From Terriglobia bacterium (GTDB lineage: Bacteria > Acidobacteriota > Terriglobia > JAJPHL01): 64,000 nucleotides of DNA. The notes under the pieces are model-generated. The model made no database searches, had not been told where the DNA came from, and saw only the letters and a list, made by a program, of their open reading frames with translations. Position 1 is the stretch's first letter. Every line of letters starts with the position of its first letter. Positions 22,670 to 50,917 of the stretch are shown one piece after another. The translations under genes and the position numbers were made by a program. Location of the stretch: contig CAVVEL010000022.1 in the NCBI GenBank assembly GCA_963747095.1, positions 3,959 to 67,958 of the forward strand, given 5' to 3'.

Positions 22670-24250
22670 CTAACTCTTCTTCACCACCGGTGGATTGTGA
22701 TGTTCCGGATGCGTGCAGCCCTTGAACTCCGCCAAATAGGTGTTGCCCTTGTAACCGAGGTCCATCAACAATCCTTGCGGCGAAGCGTAGTAGCCCCGAA
22801 CCACCAAGCCGCGAACACGATTGAAAAACGACGATGCCGGACGGATGTCCGCCGGAACGGACTGTCCGGTGAGCGCGGTCAGGAATTCCACCTGCTGTGC
22901 GTGCGTTGCGGCGGCAAACGGTTTTCCAAGGCGCGCCTTGCAGACGCTCTGGAACTGGGCCACGGACTTGTGCACGTCGTCGTGATGCTCCTCATCGAGC
23001 CAGATCATCAGGTCGGCGTATTCATCGGCTTGCGCGGCGAGCGCTCCAGGAGTATCGGTCACGGGAATGATGGTGTCGGCGAGCGCGGAAACGTCGCGGT
23101 ATTCCTCGACGCTGAAGAACAGCGGCTTGAAGTTGGGATCGAGCGGCGGAACCGGCGGCACCGGGCGGTTCATATGGCCATGCATGTCGTGAGTGTGCTG
23201 CTCCATGGGATTGCTGTTATCGCTGGAGACGAATCGGGCGGGAGCGAGAAACGCCGCTGGTTGGCTCGACAGCGTCGCGCCAATGGTCACCAGGTCGCGC
23301 AGCATCCCGCGGCGCGCGGCTTGCGGTTCGGGCGCGGCTTCGGTCCGGGCTTGTAATTCCTCGCCCGCTTTCTTCGCTTGCGCCACTAGCGGCTGAAGTT
23401 TCCGCAGTGCTTCTCCGGCGTCTTTCACCGGCGTATTGCGCACGCGATCCTGCTTCACAACCACCCACCCGTTATAGTCGGCCTGCACCAGTGCGGCCAG
23501 TACCGCGTTGGGAGTTTCCTTGACGGTGCCGCCGTCGCCTTCCCGCAGTTGAATGTGGACGACGCGGACACCGTAGGTCTTGATCATCGGGGCTGAGGTG
23601 ATGCCCAGTTTCGCGAGAGATTGCGTATCGAAACAGAATTTGGTGTAGCGGCTGTCGGAGGTGGTGATGATCTTGCGCACGTCCGCGGCTTCTTCTTCGT
23701 GGAAGCGGTAGGCGCAATGCAAGCCGGTCTCTTCGTAGACCAACGCGCCCAGCTCCGCCAGGTTGGTGGAGTGATGATGGAAGTTGCGCGGAGTGCGCGG
23801 AATGCTTCCAAATCCCGTGCCTTCCAACACCAGCGTGCCGCAGCCCAGCGCTTGCAGCGCGCGCGCCGTAAGAACGGCGCGGCTGATGTTCTTCAGCCGC
23901 TTCTCGCGATCCGCGAAATCGCCGGAGAGCGCCGCGGTCACCAAGCCGAGTCCGTGTTCGTCCAGCATCTTGCGGAGCGCATCGGGTTGTTCGCGGAACT
24001 CCCAGATATCGTCGGCGTCCACTTCCACCCAGTCGTAGCCCGCGGCGGAGACGCCCGCCAGGGCGTCGGCGAACGAGGCGTTCGCGCCTTTTGTCCATAG
24101 GTTGGTGGAACACGCCACCTTGATTCCACGGCCCGCTTCGCTGGCCGGATGGAAACCGGTCTTCTTGCCGGTCTGCGCGACGCTGGCGCCCGCCGCCACC
24201 GCGGTGACCACACCGCTCTTGATGAATTGCCGCCGATCGACTGAAATCAT
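22670..24250 (-). CDS. Tat-exported TIM-barrel + gluconate 2-DH subunit-3 fusion, paralog 2
   Basis: MISVDRRQFIKSGVVTAVAAGASVA Tat signal. Same two-domain architecture and motifs as 9304-10893 (FFSVEEYRDVSALADTIIPVT..., VVRGYYASPQGLLMDLGYKGN). Directly downstream of the minus-strand GMC gene array. Confidence 0.7.
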   Translation of the reverse strand: MISVDRRQFIKSGVVTAVAAGASVAQTGKKTGFHPASEAGRGIKVACSTNLWTKGANASFADALAGVSAAGYDWVEVDADDIWEFREQPDALRKMLDEHGLGLVTAALSGDFADREKRLKNISRAVLTARALQALGCGTLVLEGTGFGSIPRTPRNFHHHSTNLAELGALVYEETGLHCAYRFHEEEAADVRKIITTSDSRYTKFCFDTQSLAKLGITSAPMIKTYGVRVVHIQLREGDGGTVKETPNAVLAALVQADYNGWVVVKQDRVRNTPVKDAGEALRKLQPLVAQAKKAGEELQARTEAAPEPQAARRGMLRDLVTIGATLSSQPAAFLAPARFVSSDNSNPMEQHTHDMHGHMNRPVPPVPPLDPNFKPLFFSVEEYRDVSALADTIIPVTDTPGALAAQADEYADLMIWLDEEHHDDVHKSVAQFQSVCKARLGKPFAAATHAQQVEFLTALTGQSVPADIRPASSFFNRVRGLVVRGYYASPQGLLMDLGYKGNTYLAEFKGCTHPEHHNPPVVKKS

Positions 24251-24265
24251 ATTGGGCTCCTGTTT

Positions 24266-25972
24266 CTAAGTATTTCCTTTTCGCACGTCTTCCGTCAAAT
24301 GCGCCGCGTTGCGCATGGTCAAACTCAAAATGGTCATGGTGGGATTGGTGATCCCGCTGGTGCAGTGAATCGAACCATCCGCCAGTGTCAGGTTCGGAAC
24401 GTCGTGGGTCCGGCCCCAACGGTTGGTGACAAACTTTTTCGAGTCGTCGCCCATGCGACAGGTCCCTTGTTCGTGAACGTTGGCGCCGGGAACAGCCGGA
24501 CCGGCGGAATACCTGCTGACCTTGCCGCCGGCCGCTTCAATGATCTCGATTCCCCGTTTGACCATGTCGCGCGCCATACCCTCTTGCGTGGGACCATGCT
24601 TCAGGTGGATGCGTGCCACGGAGATGCCCCAGGCGTCCTTCACATTGGGATCGAGTTCCATGAAGTTGTTGGGATCTTCCAAGCCGCAGCCGGCGCCGGT
24701 GATATTGACGCCGCTCCCCGCCACTCGCCGGGAGGCGTCCTTGATTCCGGCGCCGAACATCACTCCTCCTCCGCCTCCTCCGCCCATGGCGAAGCCGCCG
24801 TTGGAACGCATGATGTAGCGTCGCAGATAGTCTTTGCTGCGGGTTTTCTCGTCGATGTTGGCGAAGGGGTGAATCATAACATCTCCCTGATAGCCGTCCT
24901 CATTGACGATTTCGCGGCCTTCCAACTGCGGAAGTTCACCCGAGACCGAGCACGCCGTATCCTCCACCAGCCAGCGTCCCACCTGCCCGCTGGAGTTCGC
25001 CAAACCGTTGGGAAACAGGTTGGACTTCGAGTTCAACAGAATGCGCGCGGTTTCAATCGATCCCGCGGAGAGGACCACTTGTCTACCGCGAACCGCATTT
25101 TCCTGGAACGTGTAGCGATCGATGAAGGAAACGCCGGAAGCCCGCCCGCTGGAATCTACGGTAACCTCGCGGACAATCGCATTGGTGAATACCGTCATCC
25201 GCCCGGTGGCCTGCGCCACGGGCAACAGCGCGCCGACCGAAGTGAATTTCGCGCCGGAGTCGCAACCTTGGCCGCAACGGCCGCAATAGTGGCACTGGGG
25301 CCGGCCGTTATGGTCCTGGGTGATGATGGCATGCGGCTCCCGCGTGGTGATATAGCCCATCTTCTTCACCGCCGCGGTTATGATCGCGTGATTGCAGGTG
25401 TAGCCTTGCGGCGGCATGAACTCCCCATCGGGCGTGCCGGTCATCTGTCCGGCTTTCCCGCCGCTGACGCCAACCAGCAGTTCGGTCTTGGAATACCAGG
25501 GAGCCATTTCTTCGTAGGAAATCGGCCAGTCGATCCCGTAGCCGTCATAGCTGTAAGGCTTCCACTCCAGCGGTCCCCAACAAGCGCGCCGGCGTTCCAG
25601 CAATTGGTTTGGCCGCCGAGCGATCGAGCACGCACCCAGCGGTAGGGCATCCCTTCGGGATGGGTGTAGCGCCAGTCGCGGATTTTGACGAAGAAATGAT
25701 CGTTGTAATAGTTGGCGTGCGCGTTGCCGTCGAATAGATGATTTCGCTTCCTGCGGCCGCGCCCGGCGAAGTAATTTTTCGTGCCAGGCGTACGTTCGAT
25801 CTGGATCCGGCTGGTATAGCGTGTTAGCGAAGGCAGTTCCCAGGGCCACTGGTGATGGCGGATATCGCGATCCATGTTGTGCCCGCCCGCTTCCACGACG
25901 GCCACGCGCGCGCCCGCTTGCGGTGAGCACGTAGGCCATCATGCCTCCGCCCGCGCCGGAACCTACAATCAC
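24266..25972 (-). pseudogene. GMC oxidoreductase paralog with at least two frameshifts in its 5' third
   Basis: C-terminal two-thirds reads as a GMC protein. The N-terminal region reads correctly only in another frame (ORF 25441-25905: VVEAGGHNMDRDIRHHQWPWEL...YYNDHFFVKIRDWRYTHPEGMPYRWVRARSLGG). A +1 insertion relative to the intact paralog is visible near 25930. Confidence 0.6.
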
Positions 25973-25997
25973 GACATCGAAAATTTCCGCTCATAAG

Positions 25998-27741
25998 TTA
26001 GACGTGGCCGTTCCGCAGTTCCTCGTCGATCAGATGATTGGCATTGCGCATCGTGAGCGAAAGAATCGTCAGCGTCGGATCGGTGATGCCGCTGGTGCAG
26101 TGCAGCGAACCATCCGCCAGAATCAGATTCGGCACATCGTGAGTCATTGGCCCCAGCGATTCGTTACAAACTTGTTTGGGATCGTTGCCCATGCGGCAAG
26201 TGCCCTGCTCGTGGATCTGCGAGCCGGCGATGGACGATCCAGTGGTGTATGCCAGTGACCATGCCTCCCGCCTTTTCGATCCGTTCGCGTCCGATCGCTG
26301 CACCATGTCCTTCACCATCGCTTCGGCGTTCTCGCGATGTTAAAATGAATCCGCACTGCGGGGATGCCCCAGGCGTCTTTGACTCCGGGGTCGATGTCCA
26401 CGAAATTGTCGAGGATTTTCCAATCCACAACCAGCCGCCGTGAATACCGATCGCAGGCGCCCCCGGATTCCGGCGCGAGCCGATTTCTTAAATCCTGCGG
26501 GCCAAGCCCCGACCGCCCCCGCCGCCCATTCCGAATCCACCCGCGGACCGCAGCACGTAACGGCGCAAAAGTTCTTCCGGCGGCTCTTTTCGTCGACGTT
26601 GATAAAGGGATGAACACCGTGACTCCCGCGGCGTAGCTGTCTTCGTTGAGACCTCGCGGCGCCTCCAGTTGCGGCAAGCGCCCGTGAGACGCCGGCCGTG
26701 GCACGTCTTCCACCAGGTTGCGGCCCACTTGTCCGCTGGAATTCGCCAGGCCGTTGGGGAATAGAGAGGATTTCGAGTTGAGCAGCATGCGCGCCGTCTC
26801 GATGGCGCTGGCCGCGACCACAACGTAACTGCCCCGAACGCGATTTTCTTGCAACGTGTAGCGATCCATATACGCCACGCCATCGGCGCGGCCCTGGCGT
26901 CGGTGGTCACGTCGCGGACAATCGGATTAGCGAACAGTTTCATGCGTCCAGTGGCGAAGGCCGTGGGAAGCAGCGCGCCCACGGAAGTGAACTTCGCGCC
27001 GGTATCGCAACCTCGCCCGCATCGCCCGCAATAATGGCAGGCGGACACGGCCATTGTGCGGACGGGTAATGATGGCGTGCGGCCAGCCGATGGCAATATA
27101 GCCGATTTTTTCCGCCGCCGCGGCTTTCATGATCGCGGGACGACAGGAGAATGCCGGCGGGCGTCATGAATTCTCCGTCCGGACAGGCGGTGAGCTTGCC
27201 GATCTTTTCCCCACTGACGCCAATGAGTTGCTCGACTTTGCGAATACCAAGGCGCAATTTCATCGTAGGACATCGGCCAGTCGATACCCACGCCATCGTA
27301 ACTATAGGGCTTCCACTCCACGGGACCCCAGCGCGCGGCATCCGACTCCCCAACAATTCGTTTTTCCGCCGATCGCGCGCGCCCGCACCCAGCGAAGGGC
27401 AGGCCTGGCGGATGCGTATAGCGCCAGTCGCGGAGCTTCACGAAGAAATGTTCGTCGGAATATTTGCTGTGGGCATTGCCATCGAAAATAATGGTCTGCT
27501 CGCGCTCGCCCACACCGACCGTGTATCGCCGCGTGGTCAGTTTGACATGCACGGGATCCGGCTGGTAGCTCTCGCGATAGCGCAGCTCCCAAGACCATTG
27601 ATGGTGCCGGATGTCGCGGTCCATATTGTGCCCGCCGGCTTCCACCACTGCAACATTCGCGCCAAGCTCGGTCAACGTATGGGCGGCCATGCCGCCACCC
27701 GCGCCAGATCCAACGATCACGACGTCGAAGAGTTCCGCCAT
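25998..27741 (-). pseudogene. heavily decayed GMC oxidoreductase paralog (five or more frame-shifted fragments)
   Basis: Fragments 25998-26318 (C-term HEQGTCRMGNDPK...ADGSLHCTSG), 26312-26878, 26488-27096, 26940-27356 and 27127-27843 (N-term MAELFDVVIVGSGAGGGM...) each match consecutive parts of the GMC fold in different frames. Confidence 0.6.
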
Positions 27742-27743
27742 GC

Positions 27744-29477
27744 CTATACGTTCCCCTTGCGCCGCTCCTCCACCATATGGGTCATGTTGCGCATCGTCAT
27801 GCTGAGGATGGTCAGCGTCGGATTGGTCACGCCGGATGTGCAATGCAGCGAGCCGTCAGCAATGAACAGATTGCGCACGTCGTGAGTCTGTCCCCAACGA
27901 TTGGTGACGAAATTCCTGGGATCGTCGCCCATTCGGCACAATCCCTGTTCGTGGATTTGCGCGCCGGGGATGGAGGGCGAGGTTTCCCATCCGGTCACCA
28001 CTCCGCCGGCAGCTTCGATCCATTCCGCGCCGCGCTGCGCCACATCCTTGACATAGGCTTCCGCATTGGCGCCCCACTTCATGTGGATGCGAACCGCGGG
28101 AATGCCCCAGGCGTCTTTCACGTCGGGGTCGATGTTGACGTAATTGTTGGGATCTTCCAAGCCGCAACCGGCACCGGTAACCGAAACATGCGAGCCGATC
28201 CCGGTGTGCTGATCTTTCTTGAAGGCCTCGCCAAAAGGGGGCGCCATGGCGCGGCCGCTGCTTCCGCCGCCCATCCCGATGCTGCAGTTGCAGGTGAGGA
28301 GATAGCGGCGCAAGAAGTTCTTGTTGCGACTCTTTTCATCAACGTTCATGAAAGGATGAACCGTAACCTCGGAATCGTAGCTGTCTTCGTTGGCCATGGG
28401 ACGATTGAAGAATTCCGGCAGAGTTCCGGAGACGCCGGCCACGCAGTCCTCCACCAGGTGACGGCCGACCTGGCCGCTCGAGTTGGCCAGACCATTCGGA
28501 AACAGGTTCGATTTCGAATTCAGCAGAATCCGCGCCGTTTCGATGGCGCTGGCGGCCAGCACCACAGTTTTGCCGCGTACTTCATTTTCCTGAAAGGTGT
28601 AGCGATCGATATAGCGTACGCCGGAGGCACGGCCCTGGCTGTCCACCGTCACATCGCGCACGATAGCGTTGCTGATCATGGTCAGGTTGCCGGTGGCCCG
28701 TGCCGTCGGCAGCAGCGCGCCGACAGTGGTAAATTTTGAGCCGTTGTCGCAACCTTTTCCGCATCGTCCGCAGTAGTGGCAAGGCGCGCGGCCATTGAGC
28801 GGCTGGGTAATGATCGCGCGCGGACCGGCCACCGCGAGGTAGCCCATCTTCTTCGCCACGCCCTTCATCCAGGTGTTGCCGCACGTCAACCCCGGCGCGG
28901 GCTGATAGACGCCGTCCGGAGTGGCGGTGAGTTTGCCGCAGGCTTCTCCGCTGCAGCCGATTAGTTTTTCGACGCGCGTATACCACGGGTCCATTTCCTC
29001 ATAGGACATCGGCCAATCGATGCCGTAGCCGTCGTAGCTGTAGGGCTTGTACTCCACAGGACCCCAGCGAACCGCGCCGGCGTCCCAGCAATTCGTTTTG
29101 CCGCCGATGGCCCGCGCGCGCATCCAGCGATAGGGCATGCCCTCGGGATGGGTGTAACGCCAGTCGCGGATTTTCGCGAAGAAGTGATCGTTGTAATAGG
29201 TGCTGTGCCCGCTGCCGTCGAAGGTAGTCGTCTGCGTGCTTTCACCCCGACCCACGGTATAGTGCGTGGTTTTTAGCTTCACGTTGACGGGATCGTACTG
29301 GTAATCGTCGCGATAACGCAGTTCCCAGCGCCACTGGTGCTTGCGAATGTCGCGATCCATGTTGTGGCCTCCCGCCTCCACCACCGCGACCTTCACGCCC
29401 GCCTGGCTCAGCACAAACGCCGACATGCCGCCGCCGGCCCCGGACCCAACAATCACGACATCGTATTCTTCGCTCAT
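27744..29477 (-). CDS. GMC-family FAD oxidoreductase, intact, no signal peptide
   Basis: MSEEYDVVIVGSGAGGGM Rossmann start. C-terminal IHEQGLCRMGDDPRNFVTNRWGQTHDVRNLFIADGSLHCTSG GMC active-site region. 577 aa. Confidence 0.85.
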   Translation of the reverse strand: MSEEYDVVIVGSGAGGGMSAFVLSQAGVKVAVVEAGGHNMDRDIRKHQWRWELRYRDDYQYDPVNVKLKTTHYTVGRGESTQTTTFDGSGHSTYYNDHFFAKIRDWRYTHPEGMPYRWMRARAIGGKTNCWDAGAVRWGPVEYKPYSYDGYGIDWPMSYEEMDPWYTRVEKLIGCSGEACGKLTATPDGVYQPAPGLTCGNTWMKGVAKKMGYLAVAGPRAIITQPLNGRAPCHYCGRCGKGCDNGSKFTTVGALLPTARATGNLTMISNAIVRDVTVDSQGRASGVRYIDRYTFQENEVRGKTVVLAASAIETARILLNSKSNLFPNGLANSSGQVGRHLVEDCVAGVSGTLPEFFNRPMANEDSYDSEVTVHPFMNVDEKSRNKNFLRRYLLTCNCSIGMGGGSSGRAMAPPFGEAFKKDQHTGIGSHVSVTGAGCGLEDPNNYVNIDPDVKDAWGIPAVRIHMKWGANAEAYVKDVAQRGAEWIEAAGGVVTGWETSPSIPGAQIHEQGLCRMGDDPRNFVTNRWGQTHDVRNLFIADGSLHCTSGVTNPTLTILSMTMRNMTHMVEERRKGNV

Positions 29478-29490
29478 ATTGTTTCCTCAA

Positions 29491-30699
29491 CTAGCCGATC
29501 TTCTTGATTCGAACATTTCGAAAGTCCACCGTGGATCCCGCGGACACCCGAAAGGCGAGCGGTCCGCGAAGACTGCCGGTGGAATGTCCGTCCCCCGACT
29601 TTACCAGGTTCAGCAAAGTCACCATATGGTTGCCGCTCACGTAAAGATGCGCCTGATTCCACCGCCCGGGATGATAGACGTTCTGCAAACACTGGTCGGT
29701 GAAAAACGCCCGCGACACACCGGGAACCGATCCGCTGGGGAACGTCTCGTCTTTGTCGGAGATGCGAAACTCGGAGCCGCCGCGAAACTCCACGCCCGCA
29801 GTCCCCCCGGCGCTGACTCGGAAGTCGAACGTCAGCATGAAATCGCCGTAGGTTCCTTTCACGGCGGCCGTGGACTCTTGGCCGGCGCCCGAGCCGTGCA
29901 GCACGCCGTCTTTCAACGTCCATCCATTCGCCAGCGCGGTGTCGGGAAGCACGTCGGTGAACTCGCCCGGCGCTTCCGTCAACTGCTCTTCCATCAAACG
30001 GTCGGGATGCGGGCCGGGCGCCAATTCCTGAATCTCGATCTTCCTGAAACGCACTTCCGGCTTGTCGTTGCCGCCGTGGAGATGAAATCCGATGCCTCCG
30101 TAATACGAGCGCCGGCTATGCGTTTCCGCCATCTTATGGCCGTCCATCAAGGTGGTAATGTGATCGCCCTCGCAGCGGATCTCGAAGGAGGTCCATTCGT
30201 GCTCGGGAATCTCGTGAATCGGCGCATCGGCGACATACCAAATGGTGCCGTTGCCGTTTTCCACGCGATCGCCCTGCGCCAGTTTGATCTCGAAGCCATT
30301 CACGGCGGGCCGGCCGACCTTGGCGTGCCCAGCGTCGCGGATCAACACGCCGCTGTTATACAAATGAGCGCCGGGCTGAAGTTGGAAGCGCAGGATGAAG
30401 TCGCCGTAATTCTGGCGCGTCACCAGCCATCCGCCGCCGTGGTCTTCGGCCGGGCGGCGCATCACCAGCGCGCCATCTTCGGCGCTCCAAGAGCCGGGGC
30501 CGACCACTTCCCAGCCGTCCAGGTTGTGACCGTTGAATAAAGGACGCCAGGCGGCCGCCGCAGCGCCGGGGTGGGGCGCAGGAGACGCGGCGGCCTTTTG
30601 TGGAACCTGGGATATGATCGCGGCGGCCACCGCCAGACAGATCACCACGCAAAGCGGTGCAGAGACCGACCGGATCAGCGACGGGTATTCAACCTTCAT
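29491..30699 (-). CDS. secreted double-DUF1080 (3-keto-disaccharide hydrolase domain) protein
   Basis: Signal peptide MKVEYPSLIRSVSAPLCVVICLAVAAAIIS. Two repeats of the DUF1080 pattern (LFNGHNLDGWEVVG...GFHLHGG...VRFRKIEIQEL; GWTLKDGVLHG...FRNVRIKKI). Confidence 0.7.
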   Translation of the reverse strand: MKVEYPSLIRSVSAPLCVVICLAVAAAIISQVPQKAAASPAPHPGAAAAAWRPLFNGHNLDGWEVVGPGSWSAEDGALVMRRPAEDHGGGWLVTRQNYGDFILRFQLQPGAHLYNSGVLIRDAGHAKVGRPAVNGFEIKLAQGDRVENGNGTIWYVADAPIHEIPEHEWTSFEIRCEGDHITTLMDGHKMAETHSRRSYYGGIGFHLHGGNDKPEVRFRKIEIQELAPGPHPDRLMEEQLTEAPGEFTDVLPDTALANGWTLKDGVLHGSGAGQESTAAVKGTYGDFMLTFDFRVSAGGTAGVEFRGGSEFRISDKDETFPSGSVPGVSRAFFTDQCLQNVYHPGRWNQAHLYVSGNHMVTLLNLVKSGDGHSTGSLRGPLAFRVSAGSTVDFRNVRIKKIG

Positions 30700-30743
30700 T
30701 TCCCCCACGATATCCGCCCGGAGGTGGTCTGTCAATGACAAAT

Positions 30744-30760
30744 TGATATCTGATATATCA
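30744..30760. promoter_or_regulatory. AT-rich recurrent motif, site 5 (perfect TGATATCTGATATATCA) between the divergent DUF1080 genes; TGTCAA at 30730-30735 is exactly 8 nt to its left
   Basis: Seen directly. On the minus strand this gives motif-N8-TTGACA-N17-TATCGT-N7-ATG(30699), i.e. a near-leaderless promoter with the motif at about -44 to -60. Confidence 0.5.
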
Positions 30761-30791
30761 CACGGCAGCGTTTTTGTGTTATACCGTTACT

Positions 30792-32042
30792 ATGCTCAAG
30801 CCATCAACTAGTCTTCTTGTCCTGACGATTCTTTTCTCTTGCACCGCCGTGGCGCAACATCCCGCGGCAGCCTCTTCCAAAGGTTGGACCAAGCTCCTGC
30901 AGGGCAACTCGCTGGACGGCTGGGAAGTGGTTCCCATCGGCGCGGGCGGCGGCAAGTGGACCGTTGAGGATGGCGAGCTCAAAGTCACTCGCCTGCTCCC
31001 CGATCGCGGCGCGGCCTGGCTGGTGAGCCGCAAGGATTATGAGGATTTCATCCTACGCGTGAAGTTCCGGCCGAACTCCACCGATTATGTTACCGGCCTC
31101 TTGATCCGCGATCCCGGACACGCCAAGATCGGGCGCCCGGCTTTCAACGCCTACGAGGTGGTGATGCAACGCAATCCCTCGGATATCAATGTGGACGGCG
31201 CGATCTACCACGTGGCCAACGCCTATGACTCCGCAGTCCAGCCGGACCACTGGGTGGAGATGGAAGTACGCTGCGTCGGCGACCACATGGTGGTGCTGTT
31301 GGACCACAAGAAAATGTCGGAGGCTCATACGCGGCGATCCTACAAAGGCGCGATCGGCTTCCACCTGCATGGCGGCGACACCAACGTAAACTACGAGTTC
31401 AAGGACATTGAGATTCAGGAACTGCCTCCCGCACCGCATCCTTATCAACTGATGGAGGAACGCCTGTTGACGGACCTGCACGAGGTCGCGCCATTGTTTC
31501 AATCGCTGGAAGACCTTACTGGGAACGTCGGAAACGCATGGTCCTTAAATAAGGATGTGCTGCACGGCGCGGGAAGCCAGGAGGATTCCGTCCTGCTCAC
31601 CAAGCAGTCGTTCGGGAACTTCCTGCTGGACTTCCAGTTCAAGATCTCTGTGGGAGGCAATGCCGGTGTATTGTTCCGAGTTCCAGCCGACGGTCAGGCG
31701 GAGAAGAGCTATGAGTTCCACATTGAAGATCCGTACAAGGACAACCCCATCGGATCTTTGTTCAATTTGGCGCGCGCTTTCCCCGTGGACGGTAACAACC
31801 AGCCCATCACCAAGTCGGGAACGTGGATTCGCGGGCGGGTCTTTGCCACCGGCGATCATCTGGTGACATACATCAATTCCGAAAAGGGCGTGGACATTCA
31901 CGCCGATCGCAGTTTCCAGGGCCGCATCGGATTCCGCGTGGCGAAAGGCGCGACCATCGACTTCCGCAACGTGACCATCAAACGCGTGGACGAGAAGCCA
32001 GCCGCCAAGAAGGCGCCGGTTTCAAGCAAGAAGCCCACGTAA
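30792..32042 (+). CDS. secreted double-DUF1080 (3-keto-disaccharide hydrolase domain) protein, paralog
   Basis: Signal MLKPSTSLLVLTILFSCTAVAQ. WTKLLQGNSLDGWEVV...GFHLHGG...YEFKDIEIQEL, then a second DUF1080 repeat. Confidence 0.7.
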   Translation: MLKPSTSLLVLTILFSCTAVAQHPAAASSKGWTKLLQGNSLDGWEVVPIGAGGGKWTVEDGELKVTRLLPDRGAAWLVSRKDYEDFILRVKFRPNSTDYVTGLLIRDPGHAKIGRPAFNAYEVVMQRNPSDINVDGAIYHVANAYDSAVQPDHWVEMEVRCVGDHMVVLLDHKKMSEAHTRRSYKGAIGFHLHGGDTNVNYEFKDIEIQELPPAPHPYQLMEERLLTDLHEVAPLFQSLEDLTGNVGNAWSLNKDVLHGAGSQEDSVLLTKQSFGNFLLDFQFKISVGGNAGVLFRVPADGQAEKSYEFHIEDPYKDNPIGSLFNLARAFPVDGNNQPITKSGTWIRGRVFATGDHLVTYINSEKGVDIHADRSFQGRIGFRVAKGATIDFRNVTIKRVDEKPAAKKAPVSSKKPT

Positions 32043-33383
32043 CAACTGTACCGCGGCCTCGCGTACTCCGCGCTCCATGTCCGGCGTGGTGCGCAGGATG
32101 CCGTAGACCTTCCAGGCATCGTCAACTTCATATTTCCCTTTGGGAAATTCGTCGGCGTGCGGCAAGTAGCCGGTGGAGGTGTCGTTCGAATAGGCGGCCA
32201 CCATCAGCTTGCGCTGGTTGGGAAAATCCTTGCGGATCAGTTCCGCGGTCAGATGCAGAATCTCGCCCGGCAAGACGGCCAAGGCCACGTCGCCGATGCG
32301 CGCCGCTTGCACGAACGTGTCGCGGGATTGATGGATATCGCCGCCGTCTTCCAGATGGCGGAGCATTTTCTCCGCCCATTGCTCCCGTTCGAACGATCCG
32401 CTGGTGAGTTGCACGTACTTGGCGCGCATCTCGTCCAGCGTGTAAGGCGCCACGTAGGTAAGCATGACACGCCTGGCGCTGAAGTCGAGCGACGTTCCAC
32501 CGACGGGCTTGGCCGCCGCCAGCGCGCGGCGCGCTTCGTCGGCTAGCTTGCGTCCGTATTCCTCCATTTCCTTGACTCCGCCGAAGACCTTGGGAATCGT
32601 GTCGCCGGCGCAGCCTTGCATATAAGCCACCGGGCACTGCTCGGAGCGTCCCAATTCCCGGTACAGCACGCCGGGAAAATCCGCGGTGATCTGGACATTG
32701 TCGTCGCGCATGGTCACCGGATGCGTCGGGTAGTTCACGATGATGCCGCGATTCCGGCCTTCGGGCGACTTTACTTGAAGCACGTTGAGAATGCCGTCGA
32801 TGGGTCCGGACTCTTTGTTCCAGGTGTTGTCGCGATTGCCAACGCGGCGGTTCAGGCCAATGGAGGATTCCACTTGTCCGAACGACACCGCGGCCGGCGC
32901 GAGATTTCGTTGCGCCTCCTGCGCCAGCAGGAGCAGTTTGTCCGCGTAGAAGAGTTGGTAGCGTTCGTCGGCCGGCCAGATCGGCGTGCCCAGCAAGGCC
33001 GGCGCGGAATGATCGTGGGTGCATTGAATCATGATGCCGTCGTCGCTCATCTTGAGCGCGCCGGCGATTCTCGCGCCGATTTGCCGCCGCAGCGGAAATC
33101 CGATGCCGCCGACGTCGGTCATGATGATCAGGAAGCGCTGGCCCCAATCGAAGAGAAAAGCCTTGGCGAAAATTTCGTCATGCACGCCGGTGGAATAGCG
33201 CAGCCGCGCGCCATAGCCCCACAACTCCGTGGACCAGCCGGGAGTAATGGAGGTCTCCGCGATACCAACCTTCAAGGAAGCGTCGCTCTTCGGCGCTTGG
33301 CCCAAAAGGCGGGCGACGACGCCCGCTGCCAGTGCAGCGGCGCCGCCCAGGCATTCCCGCCGGGAAAACTTCTTGGATGGCAT
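32022..33383 (-). CDS. Tat-exported hydrolase of the neutral/alkaline ceramidase N-terminal-domain family
   Basis: Tat signal MPSKKFSRRECLGGAAALAAGVVARLLG. VGIAETSITPGWSTELWGYGARLRYSTGVHDEIFAKAF resembles the neutral ceramidase N-terminal motif. RBS AGAGGA 7 nt before ATG 33383. Family call is tentative. Confidence 0.45.
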   Translation of the reverse strand: MPSKKFSRRECLGGAAALAAGVVARLLGQAPKSDASLKVGIAETSITPGWSTELWGYGARLRYSTGVHDEIFAKAFLFDWGQRFLIIMTDVGGIGFPLRRQIGARIAGALKMSDDGIMIQCTHDHSAPALLGTPIWPADERYQLFYADKLLLLAQEAQRNLAPAAVSFGQVESSIGLNRRVGNRDNTWNKESGPIDGILNVLQVKSPEGRNRGIIVNYPTHPVTMRDDNVQITADFPGVLYRELGRSEQCPVAYMQGCAGDTIPKVFGGVKEMEEYGRKLADEARRALAAAKPVGGTSLDFSARRVMLTYVAPYTLDEMRAKYVQLTSGSFEREQWAEKMLRHLEDGGDIHQSRDTFVQAARIGDVALAVLPGEILHLTAELIRKDFPNQRKLMVAAYSNDTSTGYLPHADEFPKGKYEVDDAWKVYGILRTTPDMERGVREAAVQLLRGLLA

Positions 33384-33402
33384 ACCATTGTCCTCTTCCA
33401 TC

Positions 33403-33419
33403 TAATATCTGATATATTA
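33403..33419. promoter_or_regulatory. AT-rich recurrent motif, site 6 (TAATATCTGATATATTA) between the divergent ceramidase-like and Tat-Gfo/Idh/MocA genes
   Basis: Read rightward it contains TGATATATT (extended -10 like, TGnTATAAT). This is followed by GGAGG at 33428-33432 and ATG 33437. Confidence 0.5.
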
Positions 33420-33436
33420 CCAGTTCGGAGGTCCTT

Positions 33437-34630
33437 ATGTCCCCTCGAATTGTAGGCCGTCGCGATTTCCTTGCCGCCGGTTTGGCCGGCGCCGCCTTCA
33501 CAACCTTGGCATCGGCGCAAACGCCCGCGCGTAAGGTGCGCTATGGCATTGTGGGCGCGGGAAACCGCGGGCGCAACGTTCACATGCCGATTCTAAGGCG
33601 TCAGGTGCCGGAAGTGGAAATCGCAGCCATCTGCGACATCACCCCGGCCACTCTGCAAACCGCGCTCGATGCCAATCCCGGCGCCAAGGGCTATTCAGAT
33701 TATCGCAAGATGCTGGCCGAGGAGCCGAACCTCGATGCGGTCCTAGTGGTCGTACCGAATTTCCTGCACGCTGAAGTGGCTTTGGCGGCGCTGGAAGCCG
33801 GCAAGCACGTTCTGGTGGAAAAGCCGATGGCGTTGCGGCTGACCGATGCCGATCGCATGATCGCAGCCGCACGCCAGCGAAACCGCGTGCTGCAAGTCGG
33901 TTTGCAATCCCGCTACAGCGAGGTCTACGCCAAGATGGCGCAGATGATTCGCGACGGCGCCATCGGGGACGTCTCCTACATGTTCGCATCGCTGTTTCGC
34001 GGCGATTGGAATCCCAAGAGCTGGCAGTACACCGATCCGGCCACGGGAAAATCCACCAACTGGCGCTTCCTGACCAAATGCGCGGGCAGTTCCCTGCTGG
34101 AAGACGGCATTCATGAGCTGGATGTGATCCACTGGCTGGTGGCGTCCGATCCGACGACCATTCAGGCGCAAGGCGGCAACAGCGTCTATCGCGATCGCGA
34201 GACGATCGATAACGCCGGCCTGCTGGTGCGTTTCGCCAATGGCGCGCAGCTCACCTTCGGGTACACCGTGTTTACGCCCGGCTCGTCCGGCACGCGACTA
34301 GTGCGCGTGATGGGATCGAAAGCGGAGATGCGGCTGGAAGGAACACGGCACGATTTCGAAATCGTGATCGCGCCCTATGGCGGCAAGGATCAGCGGATTC
34401 CCATCAAGGACCAGCGCGCCGACGAGAGCTTCTGGGCCGAGAGCGGAAGAGTAGACTTCGACGTGGAGACCTACCGCGAGCATCGCGCGTTTCTCCAGTC
34501 GATCACCACGGGTGCGCCGGTTCGTGCCGACGGCAAAGTGGGGCGCGACGCGATTCACATTTCTCTAGCGGCGGAGCGCTCCTTGCGCAACGGCCGCATC
34601 TACAAATGGAACGAGGAGGAAGGAATATGA
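33437..34630 (+). CDS. Tat-exported (periplasmic) Gfo/Idh/MocA-family oxidoreductase
   Basis: MSPRIVGRRDFLAAGLAGAAFTTLASAQ Tat signal, then Rossmann VRYGIVGAGNRGRNVHMP and EKPM. Confidence 0.8.
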   Translation: MSPRIVGRRDFLAAGLAGAAFTTLASAQTPARKVRYGIVGAGNRGRNVHMPILRRQVPEVEIAAICDITPATLQTALDANPGAKGYSDYRKMLAEEPNLDAVLVVVPNFLHAEVALAALEAGKHVLVEKPMALRLTDADRMIAAARQRNRVLQVGLQSRYSEVYAKMAQMIRDGAIGDVSYMFASLFRGDWNPKSWQYTDPATGKSTNWRFLTKCAGSSLLEDGIHELDVIHWLVASDPTTIQAQGGNSVYRDRETIDNAGLLVRFANGAQLTFGYTVFTPGSSGTRLVRVMGSKAEMRLEGTRHDFEIVIAPYGGKDQRIPIKDQRADESFWAESGRVDFDVETYREHRAFLQSITTGAPVRADGKVGRDAIHISLAAERSLRNGRIYKWNEEEGI

Positions 34631-35118
34631 GGAAAGTTCTGGCAGCGGGTGGTTGGGTGTTGGCAGCTTTTGTGATTGGCTACTACGCTCCGCATTCCGG
34701 CAAGGTTCTGGCGGCGGCTCAGGAACAGATCCGTTCCATTACGCTTCCGGGCGAGGCTGCGCCAATCGCGCGCTATTCGCACGCCGTGCTGGTTCCGGCC
34801 GGACAGGACTTGATCTTCGTCTCGGGCGCGGGCGGCGATAACTCCAAAGGCGAAATTGTCTCGCCGAGCGTGGTGGAACAAACGCGGCAAACCATGGAAA
34901 ACCTAAAAAAGGTCCTGGCGGCCGCGGGATCGGATTTTTCGCATGTCGTAAAGATGAACATTTTCCTGACCGACATGGACCACATGCCCGAGTTGCGCAA
35001 AGTTCGCGACGCCTATCTCGATCCGCAGCACGCCCCGGCGATGACCACCGCCAAGGTGGTCGACTTGGTGGGCGGGATCAAAGTGGAGATCGAAGTGGTG
35101 GCGGTGCGCAAGAAGTAG
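34627..35118 (+). CDS. RidA/YjgF-family protein with N-terminal signal/anchor sequence
   Basis: MRKVLAAGGWVLAAFVIGYY hydrophobic N-terminus, then a RidA fold (IARYSHAVLVPAGQDLIFVSG...HVVKMNIFLTDMDHMPELRKVRDAYL). ATGA overlap with the upstream gene. Confidence 0.7.
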   Translation: MRKVLAAGGWVLAAFVIGYYAPHSGKVLAAAQEQIRSITLPGEAAPIARYSHAVLVPAGQDLIFVSGAGGDNSKGEIVSPSVVEQTRQTMENLKKVLAAAGSDFSHVVKMNIFLTDMDHMPELRKVRDAYLDPQHAPAMTTAKVVDLVGGIKVEIEVVAVRKK

Positions 35119-36378
35119 CTAACGAGCCGCTTGGAACGCCGACTCCGGCACGGGCTCGATCTTGCGGACGACCAGGAAAAGGGATGCTAGCGACAGCATC
35201 GGCAAAATGCCGGCGGCGATCAGGATCGGGAAATAGGAGAAACGGTCCACCACCATCCCGGTGACGATCATGCTGATCATGCCGGCGCCGCTATCGCCCG
35301 CTCCGGCAATTCCGTTGACGCGTCCCACGATCTTCGGCGCGAACATATCGCCGACCGTGCCGATGTACGTGGCGGCCGTCCAGTTGTTGCCGAATACCAC
35401 GATGCAAATCACTGCCACGGCAAACGCATTGCTCCGCACAAAAGGGACCACCATGCTCAGCGCCGATAGCCCCAAGCCCGCGGTGAAACAGAGCTTGCGG
35501 GCGCGGTCCAACGACATGCCGTTGCGAATCAAGCGGTCGGAAACGAAACCTCCGCCGAGATTCCCGAACGTGCCGAACAGATACGGAATCCACGCCATCA
35601 GGCCGATCAGCACGAAAGACATTCCGCGCGAACTCTTGAGATACTCGGGCAGCCAGTACCAATAAAAGCTGTAGAGAGGCCCGGCGAACAGGCGCTGCAG
35701 GAAGAGCCCAAAGACCTTGCGATTGCGAAGAAGCGTCCCGACCTTCGTCACCGGCTCCACCGCCGCGCCGGACGCGTCAACTTCAGCGGCGTCGTTGCGG
35801 GGATAGATTTTCAGCCACGGAATAATCCACAGCAATCCCAGGATACTGGGAAGCAGGAACGCGGCCGGCCAACCCCAACGCAAGGTAATGAAGACAATGA
35901 TCGGCGGCGCCAGCACCGACCCGAACTGCGCGCCGGCGTTGAAAATGCCGCCGGAAAGCGCCCGACGATCGGCGGGGAAGAATCGCGCGATGGCCTTGAT
36001 CCCGCCGGTGTAATTACCGCATTCGCTGAAGCCCATCAGGAACCGCAACGACAAGAAGGCGATGATCGTACGGGCAAAGGCATGGAGTCCATTGAAAATG
36101 GACCAAGCCGCGAGAATCAGGGCCATGCCGAATCGCGTGCCTTTGGAATCCATCAGCATGCCGGCGGGGATCTGGCCGAGGACCATTCCTAACTGGAAGG
36201 CGAACACAATGTAGGCGTAACCGGTGTTGGTCAGGTGCAACTGCTCGCGTAACACCGGAGCGACCACCGAAAGCACCTGGCGGTCCATCAAATTGAGGGT
36301 GATGGAGAGAGAGAGCAGCCCCAGGATACTCCAGCGCAGTTTCTCAGAGAGCTCGGAGTCTCCCGCCAGCGTGTTCAT
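35119..36378 (-). CDS. MFS transporter (sugar-acid / ExuT-GudP-like)
   Basis: 419 aa, 12-TM profile, MDRQVLSVVAPVL and LRFLMGFSECGNYTGGIKAIARFFP motifs. Confidence 0.8.
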   Translation of the reverse strand: MNTLAGDSELSEKLRWSILGLLSLSITLNLMDRQVLSVVAPVLREQLHLTNTGYAYIVFAFQLGMVLGQIPAGMLMDSKGTRFGMALILAAWSIFNGLHAFARTIIAFLSLRFLMGFSECGNYTGGIKAIARFFPADRRALSGGIFNAGAQFGSVLAPPIIVFITLRWGWPAAFLLPSILGLLWIIPWLKIYPRNDAAEVDASGAAVEPVTKVGTLLRNRKVFGLFLQRLFAGPLYSFYWYWLPEYLKSSRGMSFVLIGLMAWIPYLFGTFGNLGGGFVSDRLIRNGMSLDRARKLCFTAGLGLSALSMVVPFVRSNAFAVAVICIVVFGNNWTAATYIGTVGDMFAPKIVGRVNGIAGAGDSGAGMISMIVTGMVVDRFSYFPILIAAGILPMLSLASLFLVVRKIEPVPESAFQAAR

Positions 36379-36466: not shown

Positions 36467-36483
36467 TGATATCTGATATATTA
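36467..36483. promoter_or_regulatory. AT-rich recurrent motif, site 7 (TGATATCTGATATATTA) with TGTCAA 8 nt to its left (36453-36458)
   Basis: Seen directly. Same TGTCAA-N8-motif module as sites 5 and 9. Confidence 0.5.
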
Positions 36484-36514: not shown

Positions 36515-36531
36515 TGATATATCAGATATCA
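36515..36531. promoter_or_regulatory. AT-rich recurrent motif, site 8 (TGATATATCAGATATCA; the reverse complement of site 5's perfect 17-mer TGATATCTGATATATCA, i.e. opposite orientation to site 7) with TTGACA at 36504-36509 just upstream
   Basis: Two oppositely oriented copies 31 bp apart within the MFS/PSD1 divergent intergenic region. TTGACA-N17-TATCAA sits 26 nt before the ATG at 36557 and its GGAAGGGGG RBS. Confidence 0.5.
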
Positions 36532-42874: not shown

Positions 42875-44224
42875 ATGTCCACCGAGGTTACGCGGCGTTT
42901 TTTCGGCAAATTGGCGGCAGCGGCTGCCGGCTTGAGCATGTCATCCCGGGCGCAGGACAAAGTTGTTCAGGATCGAGGCGCCTCTACCAAGAAACTGGCG
43001 CTCTTCGGCGGCCCGAAAGCCGTTCAGGAGAAGGCACCACCGTGGCCGGTCATCGCGGGGAACGACGAAGAGAACTGGATGGCCGTTCTGAAGAGCGGCA
43101 ACTGGAACCGCTGGTCCGGGAAGTATGTCCAGACCTTCGAGGAAAAGTGGTCGGAGGAACTGGGTGGCAAGAAAGTGCTGGCGGTGTCGAATGGAACCGC
43201 GGCGCTGGTGACCGCGGCTTTCGCGGTGGATATTGCGCCGCACGACGAGGTGCTGGTGCCAACCATGACGTACATAGCCACCATCAACCCCGTGCTGATC
43301 CATAGCGCGCTGCCGGTCTTTGTGGATACCGATCCCGAAACGTTTCAGATGGACGCGACGAAGCTAGAGGCCGCCATTACACCGCGCACGAAGGGGATTA
43401 TCCCGGCGCACATGGGCGGCGCGTCCTGCGACCTCGATAAAATCATGGCCGTTGCGAAGAAGCACAACCTGTGGGTGATCGAAGATGGCTGCGAGGGCGT
43501 TAAGACAGAGTGGCGGAAGCAAAAGATCAACACCTTCGGCAACGTGGGATGCTTTAGCTTTCAGGCTTCCAAGAACCTCTCCTGCGGCGAGGGCGGAGCG
43601 CTGGTGATTAACGACATGTCATTGTACGAGCGCTGCGCCTGCTTTCACACCAACGGCTGGATGCCCGGCGCGCACAACAATACGATTCTGATGAACGGCC
43701 TGAACTACCGCCTTACCGAGTTCCAAGGCGCGCTCTTGCTATCGCAATTGGCCCGCCTGGAAGAGCAGCAGCAGACCAGGGAAAGCAATGCGCTTTACCT
43801 GAGCGCCCGCATCAGCGAGATCCCTGGCATTCAACCGGCGCGTATGTACGAGGGGAATACGCGCAATAACTACTACGGCTACATGGTTCGCTACCAGAAG
43901 GAAGCGTTCGGCGGCGTGCCGCGCGCAAAATTCCTGAGGGCGCTGGGCGCCGAAGGCGTTCCCGTCGGCGCGTGGAGTGACGCTCTGCACAAAGAACCAG
44001 TGATCGAGAAGACTCTGAACTCGCGGACCTACCAAACCATCTACTCGCCCAAGGTACTGAAGGAATACCGCGAGCGTCTCCACTGCCCGCAGAACGACCG
44101 AGCCGCGGAAGAAGCCTTATGGATGACGGGAAGGACGCTGAACGGTCCGCGGCGCAGGGCCGAGCAGATTGCCGACGCGTTCCACAAGGTCGCGGCCAAT
44201 ATCGGTGAGCTGGCCAAGTCCTAG
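42875..44224 (+). CDS. DegT/DnrJ/EryC1-family PLP-dependent (sugar) aminotransferase carrying a twin-arginine signal
   Basis: MSTEVTRRFFGKLAAAAAGLSMSSRAQ (T-R-R-F-F-x-K Tat consensus). SFQASKNLSCGEGGAL PLP-lysine region. VSNGTAAL. Confidence 0.7.
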   Translation: MSTEVTRRFFGKLAAAAAGLSMSSRAQDKVVQDRGASTKKLALFGGPKAVQEKAPPWPVIAGNDEENWMAVLKSGNWNRWSGKYVQTFEEKWSEELGGKKVLAVSNGTAALVTAAFAVDIAPHDEVLVPTMTYIATINPVLIHSALPVFVDTDPETFQMDATKLEAAITPRTKGIIPAHMGGASCDLDKIMAVAKKHNLWVIEDGCEGVKTEWRKQKINTFGNVGCFSFQASKNLSCGEGGALVINDMSLYERCACFHTNGWMPGAHNNTILMNGLNYRLTEFQGALLLSQLARLEEQQQTRESNALYLSARISEIPGIQPARMYEGNTRNNYYGYMVRYQKEAFGGVPRAKFLRALGAEGVPVGAWSDALHKEPVIEKTLNSRTYQTIYSPKVLKEYRERLHCPQNDRAAEEALWMTGRTLNGPRRRAEQIADAFHKVAANIGELAKS

Positions 44225-44263: not shown

Positions 44264-45641
44264 TCACGGGTGCTTCCACGTGGACGGGTAAGATTGGCCG
44301 GAGGGCGTGGGATTGTCCCGCAGCCTTCCGAGTAACCGGTCCACGTCGATCAGCGCCCGATTTATCATCGCTTCGCCGGCTCCCGGTTCGACGCCCGTCA
44401 TAATGTTATTCGCGCCTAGTCCACCCGTCGACGCGGCTTCGATGGTTGGGAAGTAACCGAAGTATCCGTTCGCGTACCCCACGAAGAACGTGTGGGCCAG
44501 CGGCGAGCGAGCGCGGAAATCGGTCTGCAACTGCACGAAGAATTCTCCTGGGAACGCCGCCCAGGCAATGTCGCCATCGATCACGATCACCGCCAGCGGC
44601 ATGCGAGGATTCGCCTTTACGTGATCAACGTAGCCGCGCCACCGCGAGAATTCGCCGATGAAATCGGTGTTGGGCCATCGCGGTGCAACGGGCAGTTCCT
44701 CCGAGATCAATTTGATGCTGCCCGATTGCTGCGTAGCCGTCTGGATGGCGCGGGCTACGGTGATGACCCGCGAGGCGAAGAATTGTCCGAGTTGCCGCAC
44801 GCCATCGTCGGCAGCCGGGTCGGCGCCGTGCGGCCTCTGCGGGTTGATGTCTCCGGCGGCGCCTTGCAGGAAGAAGCACACCGGCCGCGATGGAAACGCG
44901 GCCGACACCTGCGCGCGGACTACGCCGGGATAATCGGCGGAGAACATATCGCGCTCCTGGCGGATCACCGGGTGCGCCGTCGCGTTGATCAAGATTGCCA
45001 ACGGCTCTCCCGTTCCGCTATCGTCCAAGCGAAGCACCGCAAAAGTAGGATCGATGGGGCCGCTGGCAATCGCGTCGCGGTTTCCATCGATGCCGCTGAG
45101 CATGGTGACCGAACCGTCCGTGCGAACCAGCCGGCGGTTGTAGCCGATGACCGCGGAACCAAACGCGAATCCAATTTTCACCGGGCGGGCCGTGCGGGTC
45201 GCATCACGAATGGCGGAGACGATTCGCTCTTCGAAACTCTTCTCCCAAGGAGGAATCTCCGCTCCGGAGAAATCGTCCTGGAAGAAGGGACCTGAGTGTG
45301 TGTGCGTGGCCGAGAAGAAGACATGAGGAACGACCGCTGCCACCTGCTGCTGAATGCGGTGTTGCGTCGGAATACCTGGGGTTCGGCCGCAGTCCAGGTC
45401 CACCCACGCAAAGGCTTCTCCGTTACTGCCGCGCAGATACAGCACTTGCGCGTAGAGGGGATCGAGCGCGCCCTTCGCATAGACGCGATTGTCCCAGGCG
45501 CCATAGCCCCACATCGCCACGACCCCAGGCGGTGGCGTGATGTTGAACGCTTCGAGCACCCGCCACGAGCGGTTCTGGACTCGCGTTTGCCTTTGCTCCG
45601 AATGCGCCTAGGATGGCCGCCAGAAACAGCATCTTCCGCAA
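44264..45641 (-). CDS. neutral/alkaline ceramidase-like hydrolase, paralog; signal peptide lies in a separate frame, so there is one frameshift near 45560-45600
   Basis: ORF 45423-45641 begins MRKMLFLAAILGAFGAKANA (signal). The body ORF 44264-45559 carries WGYGAWDNRVYAKGALDPLYAQVLYL...FSATHTHSGP. Confidence 0.45.
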
Positions 45642-50857: not shown

Positions 50858-50917
50858 GTCCGAATGAATACGCGCCGTCCCCCAAGGCGGCGATCGCGAA
50901 CCTTGCGGCTGGATCGC

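Follow-up and report, generated by a model that had tools for sequence, protein, structure and literature searches.

How many routes for oxidising and cleaving glycosides does a single gene cluster of a soil acidobacterium encode? The question is raised by 64,000 nt of a Terriglobia bacterium contig (CAVVEL010000022.1, assembly GCA_963747095.1, positions 3,959-67,958; hereafter the window). At 29491-34630 of this window, a first-pass annotation recognised a divergent pair of secreted proteins, each with two DUF1080 (PF06439) domains, next to two proteins with signals for twin-arginine translocation (Tat), a ceramidase-like hydrolase and a Gfo/Idh/MocA (Gfo) oxidoreductase. It proposed that these genes form a second, NAD(P)/Gfo-based route of 3-keto-sugar processing, parallel to a route based on FAD-dependent GMC (glucose-methanol-choline) dehydrogenases. 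The general idea of a periplasmic keto-sugar module holds, in that the characterised 3-keto-glycoside pathway is built from the same three classes of enzyme, namely DUF1080 proteins, Tat-exported Gfo enzymes (Tat-Gfo), and xylose-isomerase-like proteins with a triosephosphate isomerase (TIM) barrel. The claim of two parallel routes is only partly supported, since one DUF1080 gene belongs to the GMC operon and the Gfo gene does so in relatives; one integrated system fits better. Taken with the published chemistry of DUF1080, TIM, and Tat-Gfo enzymes and with known GMC-DUF1080 neighbourhoods, the most likely reading is therefore a single system under one operator. We consider it somewhat better than an even chance that the region from 22.7 to 36.4 kb, together with the other operator-marked units, encodes an integrated periplasmic pathway that oxidises, eliminates, hydrates, and reduces, and thus cleaves glycosidic bonds without glycoside hydrolases.

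Operon structure and conserved neighbourhoods

Gene identities come from the open reading frame (ORF) list of the window and Pfam domain scans (gathering score of PF06439, 26.8), and gene starts from database gene calls found by exact-sequence look-up (30699, 30792, 33383, and 34627). The core genes are as follows.

22670-24250, minus strand: Tat-signal fusion of a xylose-isomerase-like TIM barrel (AP_endonuc_2) and Gluconate_2-dh3, last gene of the minus-strand operon (Pfam; N-terminus RRQFIKSG)
24266-25972, minus strand: GMC flavoprotein dehydrogenase with one apparent frameshift near 25580 (Pfam; tblastn frames -2 then -1)
26001-27741, minus strand: GMC copy broken into at least two frames (Pfam, tblastn)
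27744-29477, minus strand: intact GMC flavoprotein dehydrogenase, 577 aa (Pfam)
29491-30699, minus strand: left double-DUF1080 protein P0024, 402 aa, first gene of the GMC operon (Pfam, database start)
30792-32042, plus strand: right double-DUF1080 protein P0001, 416 aa, secreted, monocistronic (Pfam, database start)
32022-33383, minus strand: Tat-signal ceramidase-like zinc hydrolase P0036, 453 aa, catalytic domain only (Pfam, profile, model)
33437-34630, plus strand: Tat-signal Gfo/Idh/MocA oxidoreductase P0038, 397 aa (Pfam)
34627-35118, plus strand: exported or anchored Rid-family protein P0039, 163 aa (Pfam, database start)
35119-36378, minus strand: major facilitator superfamily (MFS) transporter (Pfam)

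Both DUF1080 ORFs (29491-30741, minus strand, and 30774-32042, plus strand) match PF06439 in two stretches, with 173.3 and 168.1 bits, respectively, and both N-termini, read from the translations, are hydrophobic; the divergent, secreted double-DUF1080 pair thus stood up to the domain search that the first-pass annotation had called for. Among the neighbouring ORFs, 32022-33401 (minus) matches Ceramidase_alk, the neutral-ceramidase N-terminal family, with 58 bits; 33437-34630 (plus) matches the N and C domains of GFO_IDH_MocA, 34606-35118 (plus) Ribonuc_L-PSP (Rid family), and 35119-36378 (minus) MFS_1. Pfam scans of 50 window ORFs gave no match to any glycoside hydrolase family.

Only 13 nt (GAGGAAA then ATG), which include a Shine-Dalgarno sequence, separate the left DUF1080 gene from the same-strand GMC gene at 27744-29477. 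The left DUF1080 gene is the first of a minus-strand series that continues with three GMC genes and the TIM-Gluconate_2-dh3 fusion and, judging by this spacing, is co-transcribed with the GMC genes; the interval 29491-34630 therefore cuts an operon. The ceramidase-like gene, described earlier as lying immediately downstream, has the Tat signal and family assigned to it but is read from the other strand, towards the right DUF1080 gene (the 3' ends overlap by 21 bp) and away from the Gfo gene. The stop codon of the Gfo gene and the start codon of the Rid-like gene overlap (ATGA), which places these two genes in one operon.

The neighbourhoods of nine related contigs were compared, and double-DUF1080, GMC, ceramidase-like, and Amidohydro_1 genes were repeatedly found together in them. 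L028, the closest relative, has the gene order of the window: a leftward operon of double-DUF1080, two GMC genes, and the TIM fusion, then a rightward double-DUF1080 gene, a leftward ceramidase-like gene, rightward Gfo and Rid genes, and a leftward MFS gene. L016 and L018 have an operon of double-DUF1080, GMC, GMC, TIM (Tat), and Gfo (Tat), with the Amidohydro_1 and ceramidase-like genes divergent from it, and its terminal Tat-Gfo is 63-64% identical to that of the window. L026 has an operon of TIM, GMC, Rid, two double-DUF1080, GMC, and two ceramidase-like genes, in which both DUF1080 paralogues stand in tandem and Gfo is absent; similarly, a JGI contig has both paralogue types in tandem in a Gfo-less GMC operon. 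The order in L027 is GMC, DegT, DegT (Tat), and ceramidase-like. This synteny holds across contigs at 45-84% protein identity. In the relatives, Tat motifs are present on ceramidase-like proteins, one DegT protein, and most TIM proteins, and on none of the GMC proteins. In addition, eight of the twelve contigs of at least 10 kb that carry the ceramidase-like family equal in size a contig bearing a double-DUF1080 gene. Gene content and order thus point to an exported system common to a small group of soil Acidobacteria.

Two further observations concern the surroundings. A secreted protein of 574-605 aa with no Pfam match (49-61% identity) is encoded just upstream of the DUF1080-GMC operons in relatives (L015 4571-6367, L016 8172-9914, L017 17770-19587, and L018 8194-9918) and is absent from the window. 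A DDE_3 transposase gene (4238-5371, minus strand) lies near the left end of the cluster.

A shared operator-like motif

With at most two mismatches, ATATCTGATATAT occurs at 14 sites in the window, against 0.17 expected, and none of 100 shuffles reached 14; every site falls within or at the edge of an intergenic gap. The full form of the motif is the near-palindrome TGATATCTGATATAT(C/T)A. Perfect copies of ATATCTGATATAT, at 30746 and 33405, lie where the first-pass annotation had placed them, the former in the divergent region beside a minus-strand TTGACA (TGTCAA at 30730-30735) and the latter ahead of the Tat-Gfo gene.

30744-30760, no strand assigned: operator-like 17-nt near-palindrome TGATATCTGATATATCA, 8 nt from the TTGACA box, in the 92-bp region between the divergent DUF1080 genes
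33403-33419, no strand assigned: second operator-like copy TAATATCTGATATATTA, 17 nt upstream of the Gfo ATG; GGAGG follows
36467-36483 and 36515-36531, no strand assigned: two further operator-like copies, each flanked by TTGACA, between the MFS and DUF1549 genes
30707-30735, minus strand: promoter-like TTGACA-17-TATCGT, ending 7 nt before the left-gene ATG at 30699

Copies besides those at 30744-30760 and 33403-33419 are at 1557, 10900, 14713, 18350, 36467, 36515, 49235, 50927, 54673, and 60056. The neighbours of these ten are MFS/KduI genes, a TIM fusion, a cytoplasmic Gfo gene, LarA / Fe-S-NrfD-molybdopterin oxidoreductase genes, DUF1549-DUF1501 pairs, an outer-membrane receptor gene, amidohydrolase/lactonase genes, and a three-gene GMC operon, so that the putative regulon covers most of the window. 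The same core is found in gene-start regions of six other loci and of L028. In the latter, the operator is kept at three orthologous junctions within a diverged spacer, and the distance from the 30744-30760 copy to TTGACA is identical. In the proposed system, a single transcription factor acting on TGATATCTGATATAT(C/T)A would co-regulate all units. The GntR/FCD regulator at 14734-15462 was considered as the operator-binding protein and not assigned, as its homologues in L024 and L025 lie in motif-free loci.

The ATGs at 30699 and 30792 are preceded at 6-7 nt by -10-like hexamers (TATCGT and TATACC), with no Shine-Dalgarno sequence, and the same holds in L028 (TATATC); this arrangement suggests leaderless DUF1080 transcripts.

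Enzymes of the proposed pathway and the competing explanations

Published work describes DUF1080 proteins as 3-keto-alpha-glucoside lyases and glycal hydratases, and TIM "isomerases" as beta-lyases; since the characterised members are lyase/hydratases, we rejected the label "hydrolase" for DUF1080 as outdated. Similarly, periplasmic Tat-Gfo enzymes bind NAD tightly and recycle it on 3-ketoglucose. GMC dehydrogenases of the LacABC type, with a Tat small subunit, are encoded beside DUF1080 genes and, in Caulobacter, also beside Gfo and TIM homologues (PMC9007349).

The first step would be oxidation of a sugar hydroxyl, at C3 by analogy, by the FAD-GMC protein, which would be carried out of the cell on its TIM-fused Tat small subunit and would pass electrons to the respiratory chain. 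The GMC protein at 27744-29477 has no signal peptide and contains a Cys-rich CHYCGRCGKGC stretch; as in the complexes of fructose dehydrogenase, FAD-glucose dehydrogenase, glucoside 3-dehydrogenase, and LacABC, a signal-less GMC large subunit is paired with a Tat Gluconate_2-dh3 small subunit, which here carries a TIM barrel. Such GMC proteins have been expressed with a Tat-signal partner (Rhizobium GlycDH, PMC10628242), which fits hitch-hiker export; a literature search on Tat small subunits of glucoside 3-dehydrogenases found none. The window holds two TIM-Gluconate_2-dh3 Tat fusions, at 22670-24250 and 9304-10893 (both minus strand), which are 59% identical, and L016 carries both such a fusion and separate TIM genes. 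A single-sequence search of the PDB with the TIM fusion found no match.

A small secreted CxxCH (haem motif) protein with no Pfam match is encoded at 8840-9331 (minus strand), directly after the fusion at 9304-10893. This protein, seen only beside that fusion, may be a cytochrome c that accepts electrons; the GMC operon at 22670-30699 has no evident cytochrome c subunit of its own.

In the second step, the TIM domain and the conserved N-domain of the DUF1080 proteins would eliminate the aglycone and hydrate the resulting 2-hydroxy-3-keto-glycal. The left and right DUF1080 proteins are full-length paralogues (41% identity) of a small family, with 35 database clusters at E<1e-20, in whose alignment the N-domain is strongly conserved and the C-domain variable. 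The AlphaFold2 (AF2) model of the right protein has a predicted local distance difference test score (pLDDT) of 89. In Foldseek it matches the AL2/BT2-type structures 8v31, 8tda, 8rr2, and 9fbe at E ~1e-8, with target-normalised template-modelling (TM) scores of 0.52-0.57, and it has the beta-jelly-roll fold of BT2 and AL2. The channel of BT2 is lined by Glu103, Asn134, Glu164, Gln166, Tyr190, Lys245, Gln273, and His275. At the level of motifs, since HMMER aligns the BT2/AL2 chains over the first ~90 profile positions only, the N-domain retains NSG, an invariant Glu (E122), a Tyr/Trp, and an invariant His (H193). A profile of the N-domain alone did not report the BT2/AL2 chains. Moreover, a scan of genome contigs with the right protein returned relatives only 23-30% identical, mostly single-domain, and no orthologous locus, and a metagenome scan with a narrow alignment returned only five loci.

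The third step would be reduction of the released keto-sugar by the Tat-Gfo, which may also oxidise glycosides in a ping-pong manner. This protein has the twin-arginine motif GRRDFLAAG (NRRTF and DRRTF in orthologues) followed by Rossmann and C-terminal domains, as in periplasmic Gfo/Idh/MocA enzymes of the GFOR/BT2158 type. By its location and by precedent, it probably holds a non-exchanging NAD(P) tightly. As periplasmic Gfo enzymes hold their cofactor in this way, a plain NAD(P)+ reduction assay would probably fail.

In a fourth step, the ceramidase-like, Amidohydro_1, and Rid-like proteins may act on an amide-bearing portion of the substrate or on a reactive intermediate, and in a fifth the MFS carrier would import the product. 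The exported Rid-family and MFS genes follow the Gfo gene as first described, but the former, whose product has a hydrophobic N-terminus, does not encode a canonical RidA: Met replaces the catalytic Arg (PAR to PAM in alignments to 5yu2 and 1qah), and the protein scores 89.2 against the TIGR00004 cut-off of 106.25. The catalytic arginine of Salmonella RidA is Arg105. The best match of the MFS protein is the D-galactonate-transporter subfamily, below the cut-off.

Several results weigh against the integrated pathway. BT2 and AL2 are only remote relatives of the DUF1080 proteins (profile E ~1e-6 over ~90 residues, 17-19% identity, TM ~0.55), so that the comparison with solved DUF1080 structures urged earlier gave a fold match at a distance. 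Again at motif level, the N-domain keeps the Glu-x-Gln and Gln-x-His of BT2 in part (the Glu is kept, Gln166 is variable, and Gln273 is usually His), and the C-domain has lost Gln-x-His and has FRV instead. The closest solved relatives of the GMC protein are the fructose dehydrogenase large subunit (~1e-43) and FAD-glucose dehydrogenase (4e-37), which oxidise fructose at C5 or glucose at C1 and are not C3 enzymes. In the present assembly, frameshifts interrupt two of the operon's GMC genes. No core protein attains a curated NCBIfam cut-off, so that no equivalog name can be transferred; the Tat-Gfo scores 78.5 bits against the BT_2158 family NF058561 (cut-off 750), and better, 134.9 against 355, with IolG. 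Finally, Tat-Gfo orthologues (64% identity) also occur without GMC, double-DUF1080, or ceramidase-like genes (L029 and L030).

As to the frameshifts, the two GMC genes with a frame change are at 24269-25920 and 26001-27741 (minus strand), the latter being a pseudogene or the product of an assembly indel. Two ORFs (45708-47063 and 47083-48894, minus strand) likewise make up one TonB-type outer-membrane barrel, and, together, the split barrel and the frameshifted GMC genes may be real pseudogenes or assembly indel errors.

The main competing explanation is periplasmic oxidation, of the Gluconobacter/Pseudomonas type, of free sugars, polyols, sugar acids, or cyclitols, with no glycoside cleavage; the DUF1080 and TIM proteins would then isomerise or dehydrate keto-products, and the cell would import acidic products. 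The nearest relatives of the GMC protein just given agree with it, as do the naming of the small-subunit family after gluconate 2-dehydrogenase, the D-galactonate affinity of the MFS protein, and the fact that the best NCBIfam scores of the Gfo and TIM proteins, although below cut-off, are IolG and IolE. The regulon also has genes for KduI/IolB, LarA-like, aldehyde dehydrogenase, lactonase, DeoC aldolase, and PFK proteins, and L018 and L027 have a thiamine pyrophosphate enzyme. However, the tested DUF1080 enzymes named in the cited papers use 3-keto-glycosides, bar one endo-xanthanase/lichenase; the cluster contains TonB-dependent outer-membrane receptors, a hint that its substrates exceed monosaccharides in size; and the lyase-type TIM domain is physically fused to the GMC escort subunit. 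We consider this explanation unlikely.

Somewhat less probable again is the existence of two independent routes, in which the GMC/FAD enzymes would work with the left DUF1080 protein and a self-sufficient, redox-neutral Gfo of the Bacteroides type with the right one. The paralogues have diverged to 41% identity, one being in the GMC operon and the other alone near the Gfo gene; the Bacteroides/Alistipes system runs on Gfo alone; and the Tat-Gfo orthologues without GMC neighbours would fit such a division. Against it, Gfo lies within the GMC operon in L016 and L018, both paralogue types stand in tandem in Gfo-less GMC operons (L026 and the JGI contig), no TIM lyase gene accompanies Gfo in the window, and all units share one operator. 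The idea of a Gfo route separate from the GMC enzymes is not supported by these points. That the genes are chance neighbours of unrelated functions is extremely improbable in view of the conserved synteny, the translational coupling, and the shared, conserved operator.

Companion enzymes and comparison with known systems

Four components, the ceramidase-like zinc hydrolase, Amidohydro_1, Rid-like, and Tat-DegT proteins, are without counterpart in known 3-keto systems. The genes for Tat-DegT, Amidohydro_1, and a second ceramidase-like protein lie further along the window.

42875-44224, plus strand: Tat-signal DegT/DnrJ/EryC1 aminotransferase, a recurrent companion gene
44264-45559, minus strand: second, divergent ceramidase-like paralogue (28% identity, ATHTHSG motif)
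49520-50860, minus strand: secreted Amidohydro_1 protein (Pfam; orthologues in relatives)

The ceramidase-like protein has the twin-arginine motif SRRECLGG and aligns to residues 5-490 of Pseudomonas neutral ceramidase 2zws, that is, to the whole catalytic domain (profile E 3.5e-41), with the family's THDHSAP on the ceramidase THTHSGP. The zinc/catalytic residues of neutral/alkaline ceramidase are intact: His-x-His, Arg, His, Glu, and Tyr are invariant in the family and a second Tyr nearly so (H221, E374, Y406, and Y418 among them). Its AF2 model has a pLDDT of 91.5, and its convincing fold matches are ceramidases only (Foldseek E 1e-28, TM 0.73). At 453 aa, against 646-688 aa, the protein stops where the catalytic domain does and has no C-terminal immunoglobulin (Ig)-like domain. 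As this domain is missing and no lipid-metabolism genes were recognised among the neighbours, "ceramidase" was rejected as a functional name. The clade forms one 50%-identity cluster, and the superfamily of short ceramidase-like proteins to which it belongs is large, with 1,139 cluster representatives at E<=1e-30. Most of the best-scoring members of the superfamily align from their first few residues, which leaves no room for an N-terminal signal. A literature search linking ceramidase to 3-keto/GMC systems returned only unrelated sphingolipid and plant papers.

The second ceramidase-like gene has no Pfam match and is tail-to-tail with the Tat-DegT gene, whose product has the signal TRRFFGKL. 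Tat-bearing DegT homologues also occur in GMC/ceramidase-like operons of relatives (L017 19865-21247 and L027 8604-10001), in L027 directly after a signal-less DegT. For a Tat-exported aminotransferase, a literature search found pyoverdine maturation as the sole precedent. Orthologues of the Amidohydro_1 gene (60-68% identity) adjoin a ceramidase-like gene in relatives.

Taken together, these four partners may indicate that the substrate carries an amide or amine. As a tentative and rather unlikely extension, we propose that they, with the Rid protein lacking its Arg, form an undescribed periplasmic branch that would extend keto-sugar elimination to amino sugars and to sugars or glycoconjugates with amide groups, for example glycosides of N-acylated amino sugars or lipids resembling glycosyl-ceramide. 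Its chemistry is pure conjecture, with which the conserved, exported gene set is consistent: de-N-acylation might be followed by oxidation and then by elimination to an enaminone or imine that the Rid-like protein would resolve, and DegT might exchange keto for amino groups.

Glycoside cleavage via 3-keto intermediates has been worked out recently, in gut Bacteroidota and Alphaproteobacteria. Judging by the present locus, a more elaborate version, exported in full, may operate in abundant Bryobacteraceae-like Acidobacteria of soil. It would combine the respiratory (FAD-GMC) form with the redox-neutral (Gfo) one in a single regulon, fuse a lyase domain to the dehydrogenase escort subunit, and add four conserved enzymes of unassigned role. 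The locus supplies a defined gene set and a defined operator, and may explain how soil Acidobacteria use glycoconjugates without classical glycoside hydrolases. More generally, it places the short ceramidase-like proteins, a large and uncharacterised family (~1,100 50%-identity clusters, E<=1e-30), in a functional context for the first time.

Among known systems, the Bacteroides thetaiotaomicron BT2156-BT2159 and Alistipes AL1-AL4 pathways (Liu 2021, PMC8121099; Nasseri 2024, bioRxiv 10.1101/2024.03.25.586180) likewise comprise a Tat-Gfo, a secreted DUF1080 protein, and a xylose-isomerase-like TIM protein; in these pathways no glycoside hydrolase is involved and the periplasmic cofactor cannot exchange, as would probably also hold for the window. 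In contrast, the DUF1080 proteins of the window have two domains and are remote from BT2 (E ~1e-6), its Gfo lies below the BT_2158 cut-off, FAD-GMC dehydrogenases are co-operonic, the GMC escort subunit carries the TIM domain, there are additional genes for ceramidase-like, Amidohydro_1, Rid-like, and Tat-DegT proteins, and the phylum is Acidobacteriota. The LacABC / glucoside 3-dehydrogenase complexes of Caulobacter and Pedobacter (Price 2022, PMC9007349) share with the window a signal-less GMC protein, a Tat Gluconate_2-dh3 small subunit, and adjoining DUF1080. However, the DUF1080 proteins described there (CCNA_01705, BT2157) are single-domain whereas those of the window are double, the dedicated cytochrome c subunit is not evident in the window operon, and amidase-type partners are not described for LacABC.

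The Agrobacterium tumefaciens AtOGE/AtHYD/Gfo set and Rhizobium GlycDH with its Tat protein (Kumpf 2023, PMC10628242) similarly include an O-glycoside beta-eliminase, a putative hydratase, Gfo, and a GMC-type dehydrogenase, but as separate proteins from different organisms and without ceramidase-like or Rid-like components; the small subunit is free-standing in the GMC systems named in the cited papers (Rhizobium GlycDH) and TIM-fused in the window. With neutral ceramidase (Pseudomonas PaCD 2zws; human 4wgk), the window protein shares the whole catalytic domain, but it lacks the Ig-like domain and several insertions, is Tat-exported, and is encoded within a sugar-oxidation cluster. Lastly, the best match of the double-DUF1080 proteins in both sequence (profile E 1e-35) and fold (Foldseek E 6e-23) is BT3469 (PDB 4jqt), a structural-genomics protein of uncharacterised function that is, like them, a two-domain DUF1080 protein (18% identity); its second domain keeps Glu-x-Gln, where the window proteins have Glu-x-His or Glu-x-Arg.

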